Shown in pieces: positions 28,742-64,000 of a DNA stretch of 64,000 nt. Where the stretch lies: the NCBI GenBank assembly GCA_003220265.1, contig QHRW01000115.1, positions 1,391-65,390 of the forward strand. Reading direction: 5' to 3'. A program made the position numbers and the translations under genes. Under the pieces are notes generated by a model. That model was not told the origin of the DNA. It saw nothing but the letters and a program-made list of their open reading frames with translations, and did no database searches. Source of the stretch: Candidatus Rokuibacteriota bacterium. GTDB taxonomy: Bacteria > Methylomirabilota > Methylomirabilia > Rokubacteriales > CSP1-6. Numbering within the stretch: position 1 is the first letter of the stretch; every line of letters starts with the position of its first letter.

Positions 28742-29494
28742 CTAGAGCGCGAGAAGCTCGTGCCGCAGCGCCTGGTCGTCGCGCAGGCGGGCGGCGGGGC
28801 CGCTGAAGCGAATCGAGCCCTTCTCCAGCACGTAGACGCGGTCGGCCAGGGCCAGCGAGAACTCGGTGTTCTGCTCGGCGAGCAGAATGGTCAGTCCCTC
28901 GTGCTTGAGCCGCGCGATCTGCTCGCGCAGGTGATCGACGACGAGCGGCGCCAGGCCTTCGGAGGGCTCGTCGAGGAGCAGCAGCTCGGGGTTGCCCATG
29001 AGCGTCCGCGCGATGGTCAGCATCTGCTGCTCGCCACCCGAGAGATAGCCGCCGTTGCGCCCGGTCAGCTCGCGCAGCTTGGGGAAGAGATCGAAGACTC
29101 GCTCCACGGTCCATTGGAGCGGGTGCCGGGAGTCCGGATCGCTCCGAGGGTGGCCTGGTCTAGATGCGGCGTGGCTCCGTTTACTGGCGACGTCCAGGTT
29201 CTCCCAGACCGTGAGGTCGGCGAAGATGCGCCGGTCTTCGGGGACGAAGCCGATGCCGGCCTGGGCGACTCGGTACGGCGGCCAGCCGGTGATGTCGACG
29301 GACTTCCACGTGATGCGGCCCGCCTGCGGCGGCGTGAGGCCCATGATCGAGCGCATCGTCGTCGACTTGCCCACACCGTTGCGGCCGAGCAGGCACACGC
29401 ACTCGCCGGCCGCCACCTCCAGCGACACGCCGAACAGCACGCGTGAGAGCCCGTAGGCCGTGTGCACGTCGTGCGCCTCCAGGACGACACTCAT
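28742..29494 (-). CDS. livF: Branched-chain amino acid ABC transporter ATP-binding protein LivF
   Basis: MSVVLEAHDVHTAYG...GRNGVGKSTT (Walker A), LSGGEQQML, LLLLDEPSEGL. The real start is ATG 29494; the 373-aa ORF extension reads through the repeats. Confidence 0.9.
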   Translation of the reverse strand: MSVVLEAHDVHTAYGLSRVLFGVSLEVAAGECVCLLGRNGVGKSTTMRSIMGLTPPQAGRITWKSVDITGWPPYRVAQAGIGFVPEDRRIFADLTVWENLDVASKRSHAASRPGHPRSDPDSRHPLQWTVERVFDLFPKLRELTGRNGGYLSGGEQQMLTIARTLMGNPELLLLDEPSEGLAPLVVDHLREQIARLKHEGLTILLAEQNTEFSLALADRVYVLEKGSIRFSGPAARLRDDQALRHELLAL

Positions 29495-29948
29495 CTCTCG
29501 ACGTGGGGGGCCCCGACATGGCCCCCCACACCCCCCAACGCTCGGAGTGCCCCGGGGAACCCGTGGCACTCCTCGATTTCCCGCGTGCTCATCTCTCGAC
29601 GTGGGGGGGCCCCGACATGGCCCCCCACACCCCCCAACGCTCGGAGTGCCCCGGGGAGCCCGTGGCACTCCTCGAGTTCCCGCGTGCTCATCCTCTCGAC
29701 GTGGGGGGCCCCGACATGGCCCCCCACACCCCCCAACGCTCGGAGTGCCCCGGGGAACCCGTCGCACTCCTCGAGTTCCCGCGTGCTCATCTCTCGACGG
29801 GGGGCCCCGACATGGCCCCCCACCCCCGCCAACGCTCGGAGTGCCCCGGGGAACCCGTGGCACTCCTCAAGTTCCCGCGTGCTCATCTCTCGACGGGGGG
29901 CCCCGACATGGCCCAACCCGTCGTACTCCTCGATTCCCCGCGTGCTCA
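29491..29948. repeat. Tandem array 1 of the two-hairpin GC-rich repeat family (5 units: 98, 99, 99, 96, 63 nt)
   Basis: On the plus strand, units start at 29491, 29589, 29688, 29787 and 29883, each beginning TCATC(C)TCTCGACG. Hairpin 1 is at 29503-29529 and hairpin 2 at 29544-29572. Confidence 0.9.
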
Positions 29949-38327: not shown

Positions 38328-39815
<1,488 letters not shown>

Positions 39816-39830
<15 letters not shown>

Positions 39831-40110
39831 CGCGCCGCTGATCGCGGAGCGCCACGGCCTGGCCGGGGCGCTCCGAGCGCGGGGGGGCGTGGGGGGCCAT
39901 TTCGGGGCCCCCCACGACGGGCGGTGAAGCGGGTCATCGCGCCGGTGATCGCGGAGCCCCCCGGCGTGGCCGGGGCGCTCCGAGCGCCGGGGGGCATGGG
40001 GGCCATTTCGGGGCCCCCCACGACGGGCGGTGAAGCGGGTCATCGCGCCGGTGATCGAGGAGCGCCGCGGCTTGGCCGGGGCGCTCCGAGGGCCGGGGGG
40101 GCGTGGGCAT
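39816..40110. repeat. Tandem array 2 of the two-hairpin repeat family (107 + 106 nt units plus one 5'-truncated unit), in opposite orientation to arrays 1 and 3
   Basis: On the plus strand, units start with GGTGAAGCGG(C/G)TCATCGCGCC at 39816, 39923 and 40029. Hairpin 2 is at 39846-39874. Hairpin 1 is GTGGGGGGCC-ATTTCGG-GGCCCCCCAC. Confidence 0.9.
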
Positions 40111-60049: not shown

Positions 60050-61762
60050 TCAGGCGTCTTCCTGCGTGACTCTCAGGATCTCCTCGACCGTGGTGGCCCC
60101 CTCGCACGCGCGCTTCCAGCCGTCCATGCGCAGGGTCGCCATGCCGCGCTGGATGGCGTGCTGGCGGATGTCGCGCGTGGAGGCGCGGCGCAGGATGAGG
60201 CTACGCGCGTCCTCATCGAGGACGAACAGCTCGTAGATGCCGGAGCGGCCGCGATAGCCGGTGCCGCGGCACTCCTCGCAGCCCTTGCCGCGGAAGAGCG
60301 TGACGTCGGGGGGAGCGTCGATGCCGAGCGCGTCGAGGTCGGCCTTGGACGGCGTATCGGGCACGCGGCAGCTCGGGCAGATGCGGCGGACGAGGCGCTG
60401 GGCCAGCACGGCCTCGAGCACCGAGGCGACCAGGTAGCCTTCCACGCCCATGTCTTGCAGGCGCGTGATGGCGCCGGGCGCGTCATTGGTGTGCAGCGTC
60501 GAGAAAACCAGGTGGCCGGTGAGAGAGGCCTGGATGGCCACCTCGGCCGTCTCCAGGTCGCGGATCTCGCCGACCAGGATGACGTCGGGGTCCTGCCGGA
60601 CGATGTGGCGCAGGCCGTTGGCGAAGCTGAGCCCGATCTTCGGCTTCACCGGGATCTGGTTCACACCCTTGAGCTGGTACTCGACGGGATCCTCGACCGT
60701 GATGATCTTCACGCCAGGCGAGTTGATCTTGTCGAGCGCGGCATAGAGTGTCGTCGTCTTGCCGGAGCCCGTGGGTCCGGTGACCAGCACGATGCCGTGC
60801 GGCCGCTTGATCAGCCCCTCGAACCGCTTGAGGGTGTCGGTCGGGAACCCGAGCTTTTCGAGCGGGTGGAAGACGCTCGAGCGCTGCAGCAGCCGCATGA
60901 CGATCGACTCGCCGTGGACGGTCGGGATGGTGGACACGCGGATGTCCACGCGCTGGCCGTGGAGCGTCACGCGGATGCGGCCGTCCTGGGGCAGCCGCCG
61001 CTCGGCGATGTTCAGCTCGGCCATGATCTTGATGCGCGAGGTGACGGCCGCCTGCAGCCGGCGCGGCGGCGCTTCCTGCTCGTACAGAATGCCGTCGATG
61101 CGGTACCGGATGCGCAGCGTGTCCTCGAACGGCTCGATGTGGATGTCGGAGGCCTCGCTGCTGATGGCGCCCTCGATGAGCAGGTTCACCAGCCGCACGA
61201 CGGGCGCCTCGAACGCCATGTCGCGCAGGTGATTGACGTCCTCGTCGTCGCCGGCGCCCCCCTCGTCGTCCATGCCCTCCACGATCCGCTGCAGCGGTGT
61301 GGCGGCGCCGTCGTAGGTGCGGTCGATCGCCTGGGTGATGGCGTCGGCCGGGCACACGACGATCTTGATGTTGAGCCCTGTCGACTGGCGCAGGTCGTCC
61401 ACGATGATCGGGTTCAGGGGATCGGCGGTGGCCACCGTCAGCAGGCCGCCCTCCACGCTCACCGGGCAGACCGCGTTCTGCCGGAGATACTTCGGCGAGA
61501 GGTTCTTGAGCACGGGCAGCGCCGAGGGCAGCTCGTCGGCCGTGACGAAGGCCAGGTTTTGCTGGCGAGCCAGCGCGCGCAGCACGTCCTCGGCGGTGAC
61601 AGCGCCGAGCGCGACCAGCGCTTCGCCGATCAGCTCACCGGTCGTCTGCGCGCGGGCGAGGCCCCGCTCGATGACGTCCGGGGTGGTGAGGCCCTCCTGG
61701 ACGAGAATCTCGCCCAGAAGGCGGGGGGAGGCGGCGATGACCATGTTATTCTTCCGCAACAT
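60050..61762 (-). CDS. gspE: Type II secretion system ATPase GspE
   Basis: N-terminal MshEN-type domain (LGEILVQEGLTTPDVIERGL), GPTGSGKTTT (Walker A), DPDVILVGEIRD, tetracysteine CPSC...CEEC. The start is ATG 61762 or 61744. Confidence 0.9.
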   Translation of the reverse strand: MLRKNNMVIAASPRLLGEILVQEGLTTPDVIERGLARAQTTGELIGEALVALGAVTAEDVLRALARQQNLAFVTADELPSALPVLKNLSPKYLRQNAVCPVSVEGGLLTVATADPLNPIIVDDLRQSTGLNIKIVVCPADAITQAIDRTYDGAATPLQRIVEGMDDEGGAGDDEDVNHLRDMAFEAPVVRLVNLLIEGAISSEASDIHIEPFEDTLRIRYRIDGILYEQEAPPRRLQAAVTSRIKIMAELNIAERRLPQDGRIRVTLHGQRVDIRVSTIPTVHGESIVMRLLQRSSVFHPLEKLGFPTDTLKRFEGLIKRPHGIVLVTGPTGSGKTTTLYAALDKINSPGVKIITVEDPVEYQLKGVNQIPVKPKIGLSFANGLRHIVRQDPDVILVGEIRDLETAEVAIQASLTGHLVFSTLHTNDAPGAITRLQDMGVEGYLVASVLEAVLAQRLVRRICPSCRVPDTPSKADLDALGIDAPPDVTLFRGKGCEECRGTGYRGRSGIYELFVLDEDARSLILRRASTRDIRQHAIQRGMATLRMDGWKRACEGATTVEEILRVTQEDA

Positions 61763-62492
61763 GCTAGCATACCTGGCTTTTGCGGCCGTCGCGGCTGTCG
61801 CGGACGTGGCCGGAGCCGTGATCGTCACGACCGCCCACAAGCGCCGCCACGCCCCCCTCAGGTACTTCGTCGCCGCCGGGGCCGGGTTCATGCTGGCCGC
61901 CGCCTTCGTGCGCATGCTGCCGGAGGCGACCCAGGTCCCCCACGCCTTTCTTTACGTGCTGATCGGCTACTTCGGGGTTCACCTGTTCGAGCACACCTTC
62001 GCGCCGCACTTCCACTTCGGCGAGGAGACCCACACGGACGCCATGCTCAAGCGCTCGTCGGGCTGGCTGGCGGCCATCGGTCTGGGCGTGCACACGCTCT
62101 TCGACGGGGTGGCCATCGCGGCCGGCTTCATGGTGAGTCCCACCCTGGGCGGCCTGCTGTTCCTGGCGGTTGTCATCCACAAGATTCCCGAGGGCTTCAC
62201 GATCGCCTCGATCATGCTGGCGGCCGGCTACGCGCGCGGCGCGGCCGTGGCCGCCGGCGGCGCGCTTGGTGTGCTGACGCTCGGCGGCGCGCTCCTCACC
62301 GGCCTGGTCGCGCATCAGCACGTGGGGGCGGCGCTCGCGCTCTCGGCCGGCGTCACGATCTACGTCGCCGCGTCCGACCTCATCCCCGAGGTCAATCGCG
62401 AGGGCGGGCCCGCCCTGGCGTGGACGGTCTTCGGGGGGCTCGTCTTCTTCATCGTGGCCGACTGGCTGCTCTCGGAGTTCGTCAGCCATTGA
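61761..62492 (+). CDS. ZIP family metal transporter (ZupT-like)
   Basis: MLAYLAFAAVAAVADVAGAVIV..., HTLFDGVAIAAGF, VVIHKIPEGFTIAS. The start is ATG 61761; alternatives are 61737 and 61743. Confidence 0.8.
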   Translation: MLAYLAFAAVAAVADVAGAVIVTTAHKRRHAPLRYFVAAGAGFMLAAAFVRMLPEATQVPHAFLYVLIGYFGVHLFEHTFAPHFHFGEETHTDAMLKRSSGWLAAIGLGVHTLFDGVAIAAGFMVSPTLGGLLFLAVVIHKIPEGFTIASIMLAAGYARGAAVAAGGALGVLTLGGALLTGLVAHQHVGAALALSAGVTIYVAASDLIPEVNREGGPALAWTVFGGLVFFIVADWLLSEFVSH

Positions 62493-62825
62493 TCATGGGG
62501 GCCACGAAATGGCCCCCAAACCCCCCGACGTTCGAAGCGCCCCGGCGGAGCCGTGGCGCTTCTCTGGAATGGTCCAGCGTCATGGGGGCCTCGACATGGC
62601 GCCCCCAAACCCCCCGACGTTCGAAGCGCCCCGGCGGAGCCGTGGCGCTTCTCTGGAATGGTCAGCGTCATGGGGGCCTCGACATGGCGCCCCCAAACCC
62701 CCCGACGTTCGAAGCGCCCCGGCGGAGCCGTGGCGCTTCTCTGGAATGGTCAGCGTCATGGGGGCCCCGAGATGGCCGCCAAGCCCCCACACGTTCGTCG
62801 CGCCCCGGCGCTTCTCTGGAAGCTG
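62493..62825. repeat. Tandem array 3 of the two-hairpin repeat family (87, 88, 88 nt plus one degenerate unit)
   Basis: Units start with TCATGGGGGCC at 62493, 62580, 62668 and 62756. Hairpin 2 of unit 1 is at 62534-62562. The last unit has lost the hairpin-2 loop. Confidence 0.9.
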
Positions 62826-62853
62826 TCGGGGCAGTGCTATCCTGAGCGCGATC

Positions 62854-63336
62854 ATGCGCGCCGCGCTCGTCCTGCACGGCCCTAATCTCAATCTGCTCGG
62901 CACTCGCGAGCCGGGAGTGTATGGCCGCGCGTCGCTGGCCGAGGTGGATCGCCTCGTGCAGGCGCAGGGCAAGCGGCGCGGGCTGCGCGTGGAGTGCCGC
63001 CAGTCGAACGTGGAGGGTGAGCTGATCAACTGGCTGCAGGGGGCGGCGCGCGAGGGCTTCGACGGCGTCGTGTTCAACCCGGGCGCGTTCACCCACTATT
63101 CGATCGCGCTGCGCGACGCGGTGGCGGCCATCACGCTGCCCGTGGTCGAGGTCCACCTCTCCAACATCCACGGCCGCGAGGAGTTCCGCCAACACTCGGT
63201 GATCGCCGCGGTAGCGCGCGGCCAGATCGCCGGCTTCGGCGCCCACAGCTACGTGCTCGCGCTCGACGCCTTGCTGGCGCTGCGCGACGGCCGCGCGCCC
63301 GCGCGCGTGAATTCCCGCCGTCGTCGCGGCGTCTAA
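62854..63336 (+). CDS. aroQ: Type II 3-dehydroquinate dehydratase
   Basis: MRAALVLHGPNLNLLGTREPGVYG..., NPGAFTHYSIALRDA, EVHLSNIHGREEFR. Internal ATG of ORF 62509..63336. Confidence 0.9.
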   Translation: MRAALVLHGPNLNLLGTREPGVYGRASLAEVDRLVQAQGKRRGLRVECRQSNVEGELINWLQGAAREGFDGVVFNPGAFTHYSIALRDAVAAITLPVVEVHLSNIHGREEFRQHSVIAAVARGQIAGFGAHSYVLALDALLALRDGRAPARVNSRRRRGV

Positions 63337-63339
63337 CCG

Positions 63340-64000
63340 GTGACGGGCGGGGAGTCTGCGTTCGTGGACATCGATGACGCTGCGCTCGTCGAGCGATGTC
63401 GCGCGGGGGACGTGGCGGCCTTCGAGCCCCTCGTCGAGAAGTACCGGCAACGGGTGTGGCGCCTGGCCTACAACATCCTGCGCGATCGCGAGGAGGCGTG
63501 GGACGTGGCGCAGGAAGCGTTCATCAAGGCCTTCCAGGCGTTGCCGTCTTTCCGGGGACAGTCAGCCTTCTACACGTGGCTGTACCGGATCGCCATGAAC
63601 GTCGCCGCCGATCGCGGGCGCTCGCGCGGCGCCCAGGGTCGCGCCTTCGGAACCGAGCGGGTGCCCGAGGAGGACTGGGAGCGCGTGCTGCCCGACCAGA
63701 ACCCTGGCGACGAGTCACCGGATGCCGCCGCCGCGCGGACGGAGGAGCGCGCCAAGATCATGAAGGCGCTCGACACGCTGTCCGAGGATCACCGCCGCAT
63801 CGTCATGCTGAGCGATCTCGAGGGCCTGTCGTACCGGGAGATCGCCGAAACGCTCGACATCCCGATGGGAACCGTCATGTCGCGTCTACACAATGCTCGC
63901 AAGCGGCTCCGCGACGCGCTGGGGCCACTACTGCTGATCCTGCTCGCCGTGGGCACGGCCTTCGCGCTGATGGCGGCGCCGTCGATCCACGCCCAGGCGC
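63340..64000 (+). CDS. ECF-type RNA polymerase sigma-70 factor, open to the window end
   Basis: Own translation from GTG 63340: ...LVERCRAGDVAAFEPLVEKYRQRVWRLAYNILRDREEAWDVAQEAFIKAF (region 2) ...LSYREIAETLDIPMGTVMSRLHNARKRLRDAL (region 4). It then continues GPLLLILLAVGTAFALMAAPSIHAQA with no stop before 64000. Confidence 0.8.
   Translation, partial: MTGGESAFVDIDDAALVERCRAGDVAAFEPLVEKYRQRVWRLAYNILRDREEAWDVAQEAFIKAFQALPSFRGQSAFYTWLYRIAMNVAADRGRSRGAQGRAFGTERVPEEDWERVLPDQNPGDESPDAAAARTEERAKIMKALDTLSEDHRRIVMLSDLEGLSYREIAETLDIPMGTVMSRLHNARKRLRDALGPLLLILLAVGTAFALMAAPSIHAQA

Follow-up and report, generated by a model that had tools for sequence, protein, structure and literature searches.

Between a ZIP-family metal transporter gene and aroQ, a 64,000-nucleotide (nt) stretch of contig QHRW01000115.1 (assembly GCA_003220265.1, Candidatus Rokuibacteriota bacterium), referred to here as the window, carries a tandem array of near-identical, hairpin-forming units that we call array 3. 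The array is crossed by open reading frames (ORFs) that run toward aroQ, which raises the question of whether it links the translation of the two genes, acts as an RNA element, results from misassembly, or is a repeat that persists with little consequence for its neighbors. We place a probability of about 0.75 on the last of these, in which array 3 is a non-coding, strain-variable stack, a variable-number tandem repeat (VNTR), of a lineage-specific dispersed repeat that is selfish or near-neutral. The genome that contains the window (G000) comprises 6.0 Mb with 70.6% G+C in 200 contigs and is 92% complete, and its nearest named relatives are metagenome-assembled genomes (MAGs) of Candidatus Rokuibacteriota/Methylomirabilota.

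The array and its strain alleles

Tandem Repeats Finder detected array 3 at positions 62493-62810 of the window, with a period of 88, 3.6 copies, and 93% matches, along with two related arrays at 29490-29914 and 39809-40107. The array begins on the base directly after the ZIP TGA (62490-62492) and its end at 62825 lies 28 nt before the aroQ ATG at 62854, in agreement with where both ends had been placed in a first-pass annotation made from the sequence alone. Unit boundaries were taken from an alignment of the units, which recovers the three near-identical units and one decayed unit that the annotation had described: on the + strand, unit 1 (type A, 87 nt, 62493-62579), unit 2 (type B, 88 nt, 62580-62667), unit 3 (type B, 88 nt, 62668-62755), which is identical to unit 2, and the decayed unit 4 (type D, 62756-62834). 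Unit 1 is the best preserved, with an nhmmer score of 75 and a core identity to the family consensus of 0.91, and contains hairpin 1 (62496-62518), hairpin 2 (62534-62562), and a small third stem (62564-62577). The extra G that had been noticed in the right arm of hairpin 1 in units 2 and 3 (GGCGCCCCC) is seen in the alignment, where it bulges that arm. Unit D, with a core identity to the consensus of 0.65, has a mismatched hairpin 1 arm and is missing 11 nt (GAGCCGTGGCG) from the apex of hairpin 2, both as previously described. Because GGCG direct repeats lie on both sides of the missing piece, this loss points to a slippage deletion.

Alleles of the junction were collected from contigs of other metagenome assemblies that encode either the exact AroQ protein (13 contigs) or the exact ZIP protein (9 contigs). 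Three independent contigs span the whole junction, with flanks 99.9-100% identical to the window. The window allele has the order A-B-B-D and a gap of 361 nt between the genes; one spanning contig has the order A-B-C-D and a gap of 357 nt, and the allele A-C-D, with a gap of 269 nt, is identical in two different samples. Partial contigs add an allele with an intact last unit that has a complete hairpin 2 (L117/L119), and another with a B variant that contains a TGA. Unit A is constant across all strain alleles, while the place of unit 3 is filled in other strains by the variant unit C or the unit is missing, and the present strain variation consists of gain and loss of internal units. The A variant of the window, GGTCCAGCG, and its B-D junction are each found in other assemblies, as is the A-B junction. 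Most short contigs with an identical ZIP or aroQ gene end inside the array. Because independent assemblies with identical flanks carry at least four alleles of the array, array 3 is real and is a true VNTR rather than a misassembly. The junction provides a natural VNTR marker for strain typing of this uncultured soil lineage.

A comparison of the junction in close relatives, which the first-pass annotation had suggested, was made with the ZIP-aroQ neighborhoods of 17 related genomes, with the genus represented by 12 species. Five further species of the genus have the repeat at the same position, immediately past the ZIP stop, so that, with G000, the site is occupied in 6 of the 12 species. The number of units at the site is 3.6 in G000, 2 in G005, 1 plus a remnant in G013, ~5 in G007, and 1-2 in G001 and G009. 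The annotation would have been refuted by a lack of conservation at this junction combined with evidence of misassembly, and the outcome was the opposite: the five other species carry the repeat, and independent assemblies reproduce the array. ZIP ends on the same His codon with or without the repeat, and the insertion therefore lies after the native ZIP stop. In the outgroup genera there is no two-hairpin repeat at the junction, and all of them have a TGnTATCCT box 5-9 nt before the aroQ ATG. The distribution of the repeat is patchy on a tree of ZIP and AroQ, and several gains or losses are therefore implied.

The site is empty in the remaining six species of the genus. Among these, G008 retains the -10 box upstream of aroQ, and both the repeat and the box are lost in G004, which is the sister of G000, in G003 and G010, and in the pair G006/G012. 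The G004 junction reads TGAC-ATG and the other junctions that have no spacer read TGATG or similar. TCATG occurs at both ends of the spacer in G000 (TGA-TCATG...GCGA-TCATG-CGC), and we infer that one deletion between these two words would give almost the G004 junction. The spacer is thus lost as a whole in five species (L002 (G004:C223), L007, L009, L006, and L010), and by the look of these junctions aroQ has switched in the five species from its own promoter to coupling with ZIP.

The history of the array may be read from its units. Unit D is 0.89 identical to the single G013 unit at this site, versus 0.75-0.79 for units A to C, and by its sequence it is a different sub-type. It is probably an old copy, with units A to C being younger additions on the stop-codon side. 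Units A to C have a common, locus-specific tail (GGTCAGCG), which argues that they multiplied locally. In the scenario that we favor, one copy would have landed right after the ZIP stop, upstream of a leaderless promoter box of aroQ. Unit D would be the oldest, probably shared with another species, and the younger units A, B, and C would have been gained and lost on the stop-codon side by replication slippage or by unequal recombination between head-to-tail units. The array would then most likely persist as DNA that is selfish or near-neutral, with no designed translation and no role in coupling ZIP to aroQ, which is probably transcribed from its own TGnTATCCT box.

The dispersed repeat family

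Copies of the family were counted across the window genome by nhmmer with a profile built from the unit. This search gave 282 matches at 209 loci, which bears out the earlier description of array 3 as the third array of one repeat family. Tandem copies occur at 39 loci (2-6 copies each), and all 39 clusters are head-to-tail on the same strand, with periods mostly of 77-107 nt. Many arrays at unrelated loci have the 87-88-nt period and a related linker, TCTGGARTGGTnnnCGTCAT; because period and linker recur in this way, the units can be regarded as complete elements stacked head to tail. The concentration of decay at one end, which had been noticed in array 3, is a family-wide polarity: among 34 informative arrays, the unit nearest to the family consensus is the one at the hairpin-1 end in 27 and the last one in 7 (p = 8e-4), whatever the direction of the gene.

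A phylum-wide search of 151 sampled genomes, with one single unit as the query rather than the whole-family profile, gave matches in 65, and all but one of these 65 genomes belong to the family-level clade of the window genome. Candidate counts in this first look reach the hundreds. As judged from the search, the family is lineage-specific and nearly confined to one family-level clade. Nothing similar to the array was found in collections of plasmids and phages, and a literature search on intergenic repeats in Rokubacteria found no paper in the library searched. The family is also a frequent cause of contig breaks in Rokubacteria MAGs (L114-L120, L127-L132).

Gene contexts were assigned with a codon-likelihood gene caller (5,858 genes, 92% coverage, start codons approximate). 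Loci of the family lie between co-directional genes in 125 cases, convergent genes in 55, and divergent genes in 7, against a genome baseline of 76/12/12%. Convergent contexts accordingly make up 29% of loci versus 12% at baseline, and divergent contexts 4% versus 12%. Relative to transcription, 58 copies are sense and 67 antisense, and many copies lie inside tight operon junctions such as livG/livF. The end that carries hairpin 1 keeps close to stop codons: the distance from the end of the upstream stop codon to the first G of hairpin 1 is 1-7 nt in 74 of 111 cases. The commonest distance, 4 nt, is also the one between the ZIP TGA and hairpin 1 in array 3. The hairpin-2 side is much looser in its distance to stop codons. 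In large intergenic spaces the element stays by the upstream stop, at a median fractional position of 0.045. Stop codons beside hairpin 1 are TAG in 44%, TAA in 14%, and TGA in 42%, versus 26/8/66% genome-wide (p = 7e-6), and the codon usage of stops on the hairpin-2 side is not significantly different from that of the genome. The idea that the stop codon is part of the element was tried and rejected: forward stops occur in the 12-nt 5' flank of 77-80% of copies that face an incoming gene and of 39% of antisense copies, and because antisense copies carry a stop in only 39% the flank stop is mostly the gene's own.

How the family moves was approached through its ends and through candidate enzymes. 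The consensus has no terminal inverted repeats (TIRs) and its ends are not complementary. No target-site duplication (TSD) of at least 5 nt was detected, with flank matches averaging 3.81 nt versus 3.72 ± 0.07 nt for mismatched flanks; a duplication of 2-4 nt is possible. The TCAT and CTAGT repeats that flank single loci do not generalize. The Y1 or REP-associated tyrosine transposase (RAYT) domain, PF01797, was not found in the window genome or in two other genomes of the genus. It occurs in 17 of 81 clade genomes, several of which (G074, G110, G117, G067, and G070) have no match to the repeat. A Y1/RAYT mobilizer was consequently rejected, being missing from the window genome and showing no correlation with the repeat across the clade.

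Reading frames, RNA structure, and the aroQ box

The two frames described in the first-pass annotation are where it had placed them. One starts with the ATG at 62495, 2 nt after the ZIP stop, and runs for 116 codons to TGA 62843-62845, leaving 8 nt to the aroQ ATG; the other starts with the ATG at 62509 and continues in frame into aroQ as an ORF of 275 aa. TGA 62843-62845 is the only + strand stop triplet in the gap. The relation of the post-ZIP frame to aroQ depends on the allele: it stops at -8 relative to the aroQ ATG in the window (361 nt), runs on to a stop at +32, within aroQ, in the 357-nt allele, and is fused in frame to aroQ in the 269-nt allele. Third-position G+C content (GC3) is 0.68-0.74 in the three frames of the array versus 0.91-0.92 in ZIP and aroQ, and the array ORFs have no match in Pfam. 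The core of the repeat is free of stop triplets on either strand in 82-86% of copies regardless of the orientation of transcription, and in 46% of repeat-aware shuffles one frame or more stays open over the whole gap. Selection for open frames on the transcribed strand was considered and rejected, with counts of stop triplets the same in both orientations. Genome-wide, array periods are even mod 3 (25/23/25). Chains of mini-ORFs linked by ATGA occur in only 2 of 27 co-directional arrays, which are arrays 1 and 2 of the window with 5 and 4 links, and array 3 has 0 such links; chaining is an exception rather than a property of the family. The earlier statement that both frames are expected by chance is supported by the shuffles, the stop-poor core, the low GC3, and the allele-dependent relation to aroQ, and the frames of array 3 are best supported as a by-product of composition, not meaningful coding. 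In annotation, the array can lead gene callers to lengthen aroQ or to predict a spurious 116-aa ORF that spans it, and in two alleles an ATG of the array lies in frame with aroQ.

The ~88-nt unit consists of hairpin 1 (G5C2/G2C5), a C-rich spacer, hairpin 2, and a tail of ~20 nt; the tails that follow hairpin 2 read TCTCTGGAA. The RNA fold of unit 1 gives the two predicted hairpins plus the small third stem at -46.3 kcal/mol (z = -4.39). Units 2 and 3 fold less cleanly (z = -1.85) because of the bulged G, and the gap as a whole, array included, folds better than shuffles (z = -3.7). The sequence of hairpin 1 is invariant across the family. Hairpin 2 covaries, with 7 of 12 pairs altered on both sides, 63 cells changed, and 0 of 500 shuffles reaching the score, and it is maintained through compensatory substitutions. 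Non-Watson-Crick pairs are biased to A·C on the element's own top strand in both orientations, and no shift of mismatches to G·U on the transcribed strand was seen in either orientation, a pattern that in itself lends no support to selection at the RNA level but does not decide the matter. The hairpins have no T-tract, and a scan of 61600-63500 for intrinsic terminators gave 0 terminator-like sites. Rfam gave no match at the gathering threshold in the whole window, and its best sub-threshold match was RF02353 BjrC68, with 17.5 bits against a gathering score of 39.

The hairpin-2 end of array 3 is followed not by a start codon but by a -10 box of aroQ and 10 further nt before the ATG. The box, TGCTATCCT, is an extended -10-like element on the + strand at 62835-62843, and TGA 62843-62845 overlaps it. 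Across 6 genera, 12 species have a conserved TGnTAT(C/T)CT box 5-10 nt ahead of the aroQ ATG, some of them species that have no repeat, and no Shine-Dalgarno sequence is present between the box and the ATG. Genome-wide, 29 of 215 occurrences of TATCCT have a strongly coding ORF starting 6-10 nt further on, versus 31 of 959 for permuted hexamers (p = 4e-8). A scan of 61600-63500 for sigma-70 consensus promoters found nothing, so that the reading as a -10 box rests on conservation and on the genome-wide spacing test. Taken together, these data suggest that aroQ probably has its own leaderless promoter at the TGnTATCCT box. Because this box is conserved with and without the repeat, array 3 most likely lies in the 3' tail of ZIP, upstream of the aroQ promoter, rather than in a coupling junction, and on its own it probably has little effect on aroQ. 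As a side observation, TATCCT, TATTCT, and TATACT all precede coding ORF starts by 6-10 nt genome-wide, which suggests that leaderless mRNAs are frequent in this lineage.

An effect of the array on ZIP is possible, either on translation termination or on mRNA stability. With stable stem-loops only 4 nt past the TGA, termination on the ZIP mRNA or the release of ribosomes from it could be impeded, and the hairpins could protect or punctuate the 3' end of this mRNA. The likeliest side effects would be those of repetitive extragenic palindromic (REP) sequences in Escherichia coli, where REPs within 15 nt of a stop codon cause ribosomes to stall at termination and reduce translation of the upstream gene (Liang et al. 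2015, as summarized in PMC12306157), and where REPs affect the stability of mRNA 3' ends (PMC12306157, PMC3733652).

These results can be set against three other accounts of the junction. The array or its copy number could come from mis-joined reads of other repeat copies, given that short contigs of other assemblies mostly break within it and that an assembler with k=141 cannot safely count identical 88-nt units beyond two. This account is barely credible beside three independent contigs that span the junction, two of them identical and from different samples, the recurrence of the window's A variant and B-D junction elsewhere, and related species with the repeat at the same site. In a relay like that proposed for mycobacterial interspersed repetitive units (MIRUs), ribosomes would restart at the post-ZIP ATG, read the 116-codon frame, and hand over to aroQ, with the array tolerated or selected for keeping up this coupling. 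The geometry of the window fits such a relay, with its TGA-TC-ATG opening and a stop 8 nt before the aroQ ATG; arrays 1 and 2 carry ATGA chains; MIRUs are thought to act in this way (PMC12548453); and in the spacer-less species ZIP and aroQ are coupled (TGAC-ATG, TGATG). Yet in two other alleles with identical flanks the frame either joins aroQ or runs 32 nt into it, a further allele has a TGA inside a unit, and the 88-nt period moves the frame at every unit. The array frames also have no codon bias, the periods of the family show no preference mod 3, ATGA chains are missing from 25 of 27 co-directional arrays, the elements are equally frequent in both orientations, and the conserved -10 box belongs to aroQ itself. 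A genuine ATGA-chained repeat of the same bacterial family, described below, looks quite different, and we consider the relay very unlikely. Somewhat stronger arguments can be made for a selected regulatory or structural RNA, in which the stack terminates transcription or insulates ZIP from aroQ, or stabilizes the ZIP mRNA, with copy number tuning the effect. Enrichment after stops and between convergent genes with depletion between divergent ones, the compensatory changes in hairpin 2, the folding of the whole array relative to shuffles, the roles of E. coli REPs (PMC12306157, PMC3733652), and the occupation of the site in half of the genus would all fit. However, the hairpins have no T-tract and the terminator scan was empty, many copies sit in tight operon junctions such as livG/livF where termination would do harm, and the site is empty in the sister species and five others. 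Moreover, the A·C bias follows the element's own strand and does not shift to G·U on the transcribed one, strains differ in copy number and in unit sequence with no visible constraint, and no Rfam family reaches threshold, which together make a selected RNA improbable, if worth keeping in mind.

The reading of array 3 as a selfish or near-neutral VNTR stack has points against it as well. The count of identical B units in the window is that given by the assembly, and what is said here of co-transcription, of 3' ends, and of effects on ZIP or aroQ is prediction. The gap is open in all three + strand frames, an outcome reached in only 4% of repeat-aware shuffles, and there may be a weak constraint against stops. 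Plain neutrality leaves the adjacency to stop codons, the TAG enrichment, and the polarity of arrays unexplained, and these features hint at a targeting mechanism or a function. They would fit a new kind of mobile element that homes to positions just past stop codons by its hairpin-1 end and adds units on the stop side, with no Y1/RAYT, TIRs, or detectable TSD. The 1-7-nt adjacency, the TAG/TAA enrichment, the polarity, the recurrent 87-88-nt period and linker, and the distal position of unit D agree with this possibility, to which we give little credence at present. If it is true, array 3 records repeated stop-proximal insertion plus slippage.

Known repeat systems and a separate 65-nt repeat

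Within a repeat family that resembles both REP sequences and MIRUs, array 3 is an ordinary locus, non-coding and variable between strains. As in MIRUs, the units fall within 40-100 nt, are scattered over many intergenic sites of operons, and form head-to-tail stacks, and as at MIRU-VNTR loci the copy number varies among strains and relatives can have a junction of a few bases (PMC2734929). Unlike MIRUs, which insert at start codons (PMC12548453), the family places hairpin 1 against upstream stop codons. MIRU ORFs are coupled by a -4 overlap along the direction of the genes (PMC12548453), whereas array 3 has no ATGA chain, the Rokubacteria family occurs in both orientations, and the frame is not kept between alleles. 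The host phylum also differs, and the likeness is drawn from layout rather than from sequence relatedness.

REP sequences and their composite forms, bacterial interspersed mosaic elements (BIMEs) and REPINs, are likewise GC-rich stem-loops with hundreds of copies just downstream of coding regions (PMC3733652, PMC12306157). They often lie within 15 nt of a stop codon or overlap it, their stems are kept by complementary changes, and they are patchy among relatives. The Rokubacteria element differs in being a composite of ~88 nt with two hairpins and a tail, not a single palindrome of 20-40 nt, and in forming head-to-tail direct arrays rather than the inverted doublets of REPINs and BIMEs. More than 90% of REP/REPIN members carry an unpaired GTAG or CGTC tetranucleotide at one end, and the Rokubacteria element has no such tag conserved across the family: the 5' flank is only AT-rich, with no base above 0.55 at any position, the 3' flank has the consensus TC[GT][AG]TAAC, and CGTC stands ahead of hairpin 1 in some arrays, and there in internal units only. 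Also unlike REPs and REPINs, the element has no RAYT in its window genome, and Y1 transposases do not co-occur with it in the clade. Miniature inverted-repeat transposable elements (MITEs), including Correia/NEMIS, ERIC, and RUP, are similar in being short, non-autonomous, structured, and dispersed between genes, where they can be co-transcribed with their neighbors. In contrast to MITEs, the consensus has no TIRs, no TSD of at least 5 nt is detectable, and no parent insertion sequence was identified. The Bradyrhizobiaceae small RNA RF02353 BjrC68 shares two GC-rich hairpins in ~82 nt, and hairpin 2 aligns to the second stem of the model, but the score falls well short of gathering (17.5 bits against 39) and there is no U-tail, so that the resemblance is generic only.

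In two sister genera, represented by G021 and G022, the junction holds a different repeat, of 65 nt (3n+2), which is placed after the -10 box and ahead of aroQ. Its loci include L017:1318-1500 (G021:C179) and L015 (G022:C27), as well as L133-L148. Each unit is a mini-ORF of 22 codons that starts with ATG (MSDARLSQATHGxRRPRGPRYK/Q) and has a TGA that overlaps the next ATG (ATGA), and the last ATGA overlap of the chain at the junction is the aroQ start. There are at least 50 matches in each of G021, G022, and G018. In the window genome there are ~10-20 weak matches, with solo copies at C154:14602, C171:112044, C57:14640, and C116:8045. At 12 of 16 G021 loci examined, a chain of one to three units leads up to a long ORF and closes with ATGA on its start codon, and the long ORFs that follow these chains in G021 have a GC3 of 0.88-0.99, with the chain always on the strand of the gene. 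By its sequence, the 65-nt repeat has genuine MIRU architecture outside the mycobacteria and is unrelated to the two-hairpin family. It offers a clean non-mycobacterial case for the ribosome-relay idea, in contrast with array 3 in the same clade, and this chained repeat merits further work along with the targeting and polarity of the two-hairpin family.

Both genes that border array 3 are well supported. The ZIP gene (61761-62492, + strand) matches Pfam PF02535 Zip with E = 5.8e-21 and has a GC3 of 0.92; its start at 61761 (243 aa) is the one called in other assemblies, and the 243-aa gene is present on independent contigs. aroQ (62854-63336, + strand) encodes a type II 3-dehydroquinate dehydratase (Pfam PF01220 DHquinase_II, E = 9.5e-58), and the 13 contigs from other assemblies encode the identical 160-aa AroQ protein. 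Just 3 nt past the aroQ stop, TAA, comes the GTG of a gene for an extracytoplasmic function (ECF) sigma factor (63334-63342 in the window). By this arrangement, aroQ and the ECF sigma factor gene are tightly linked, with array 3 separating ZIP from both.

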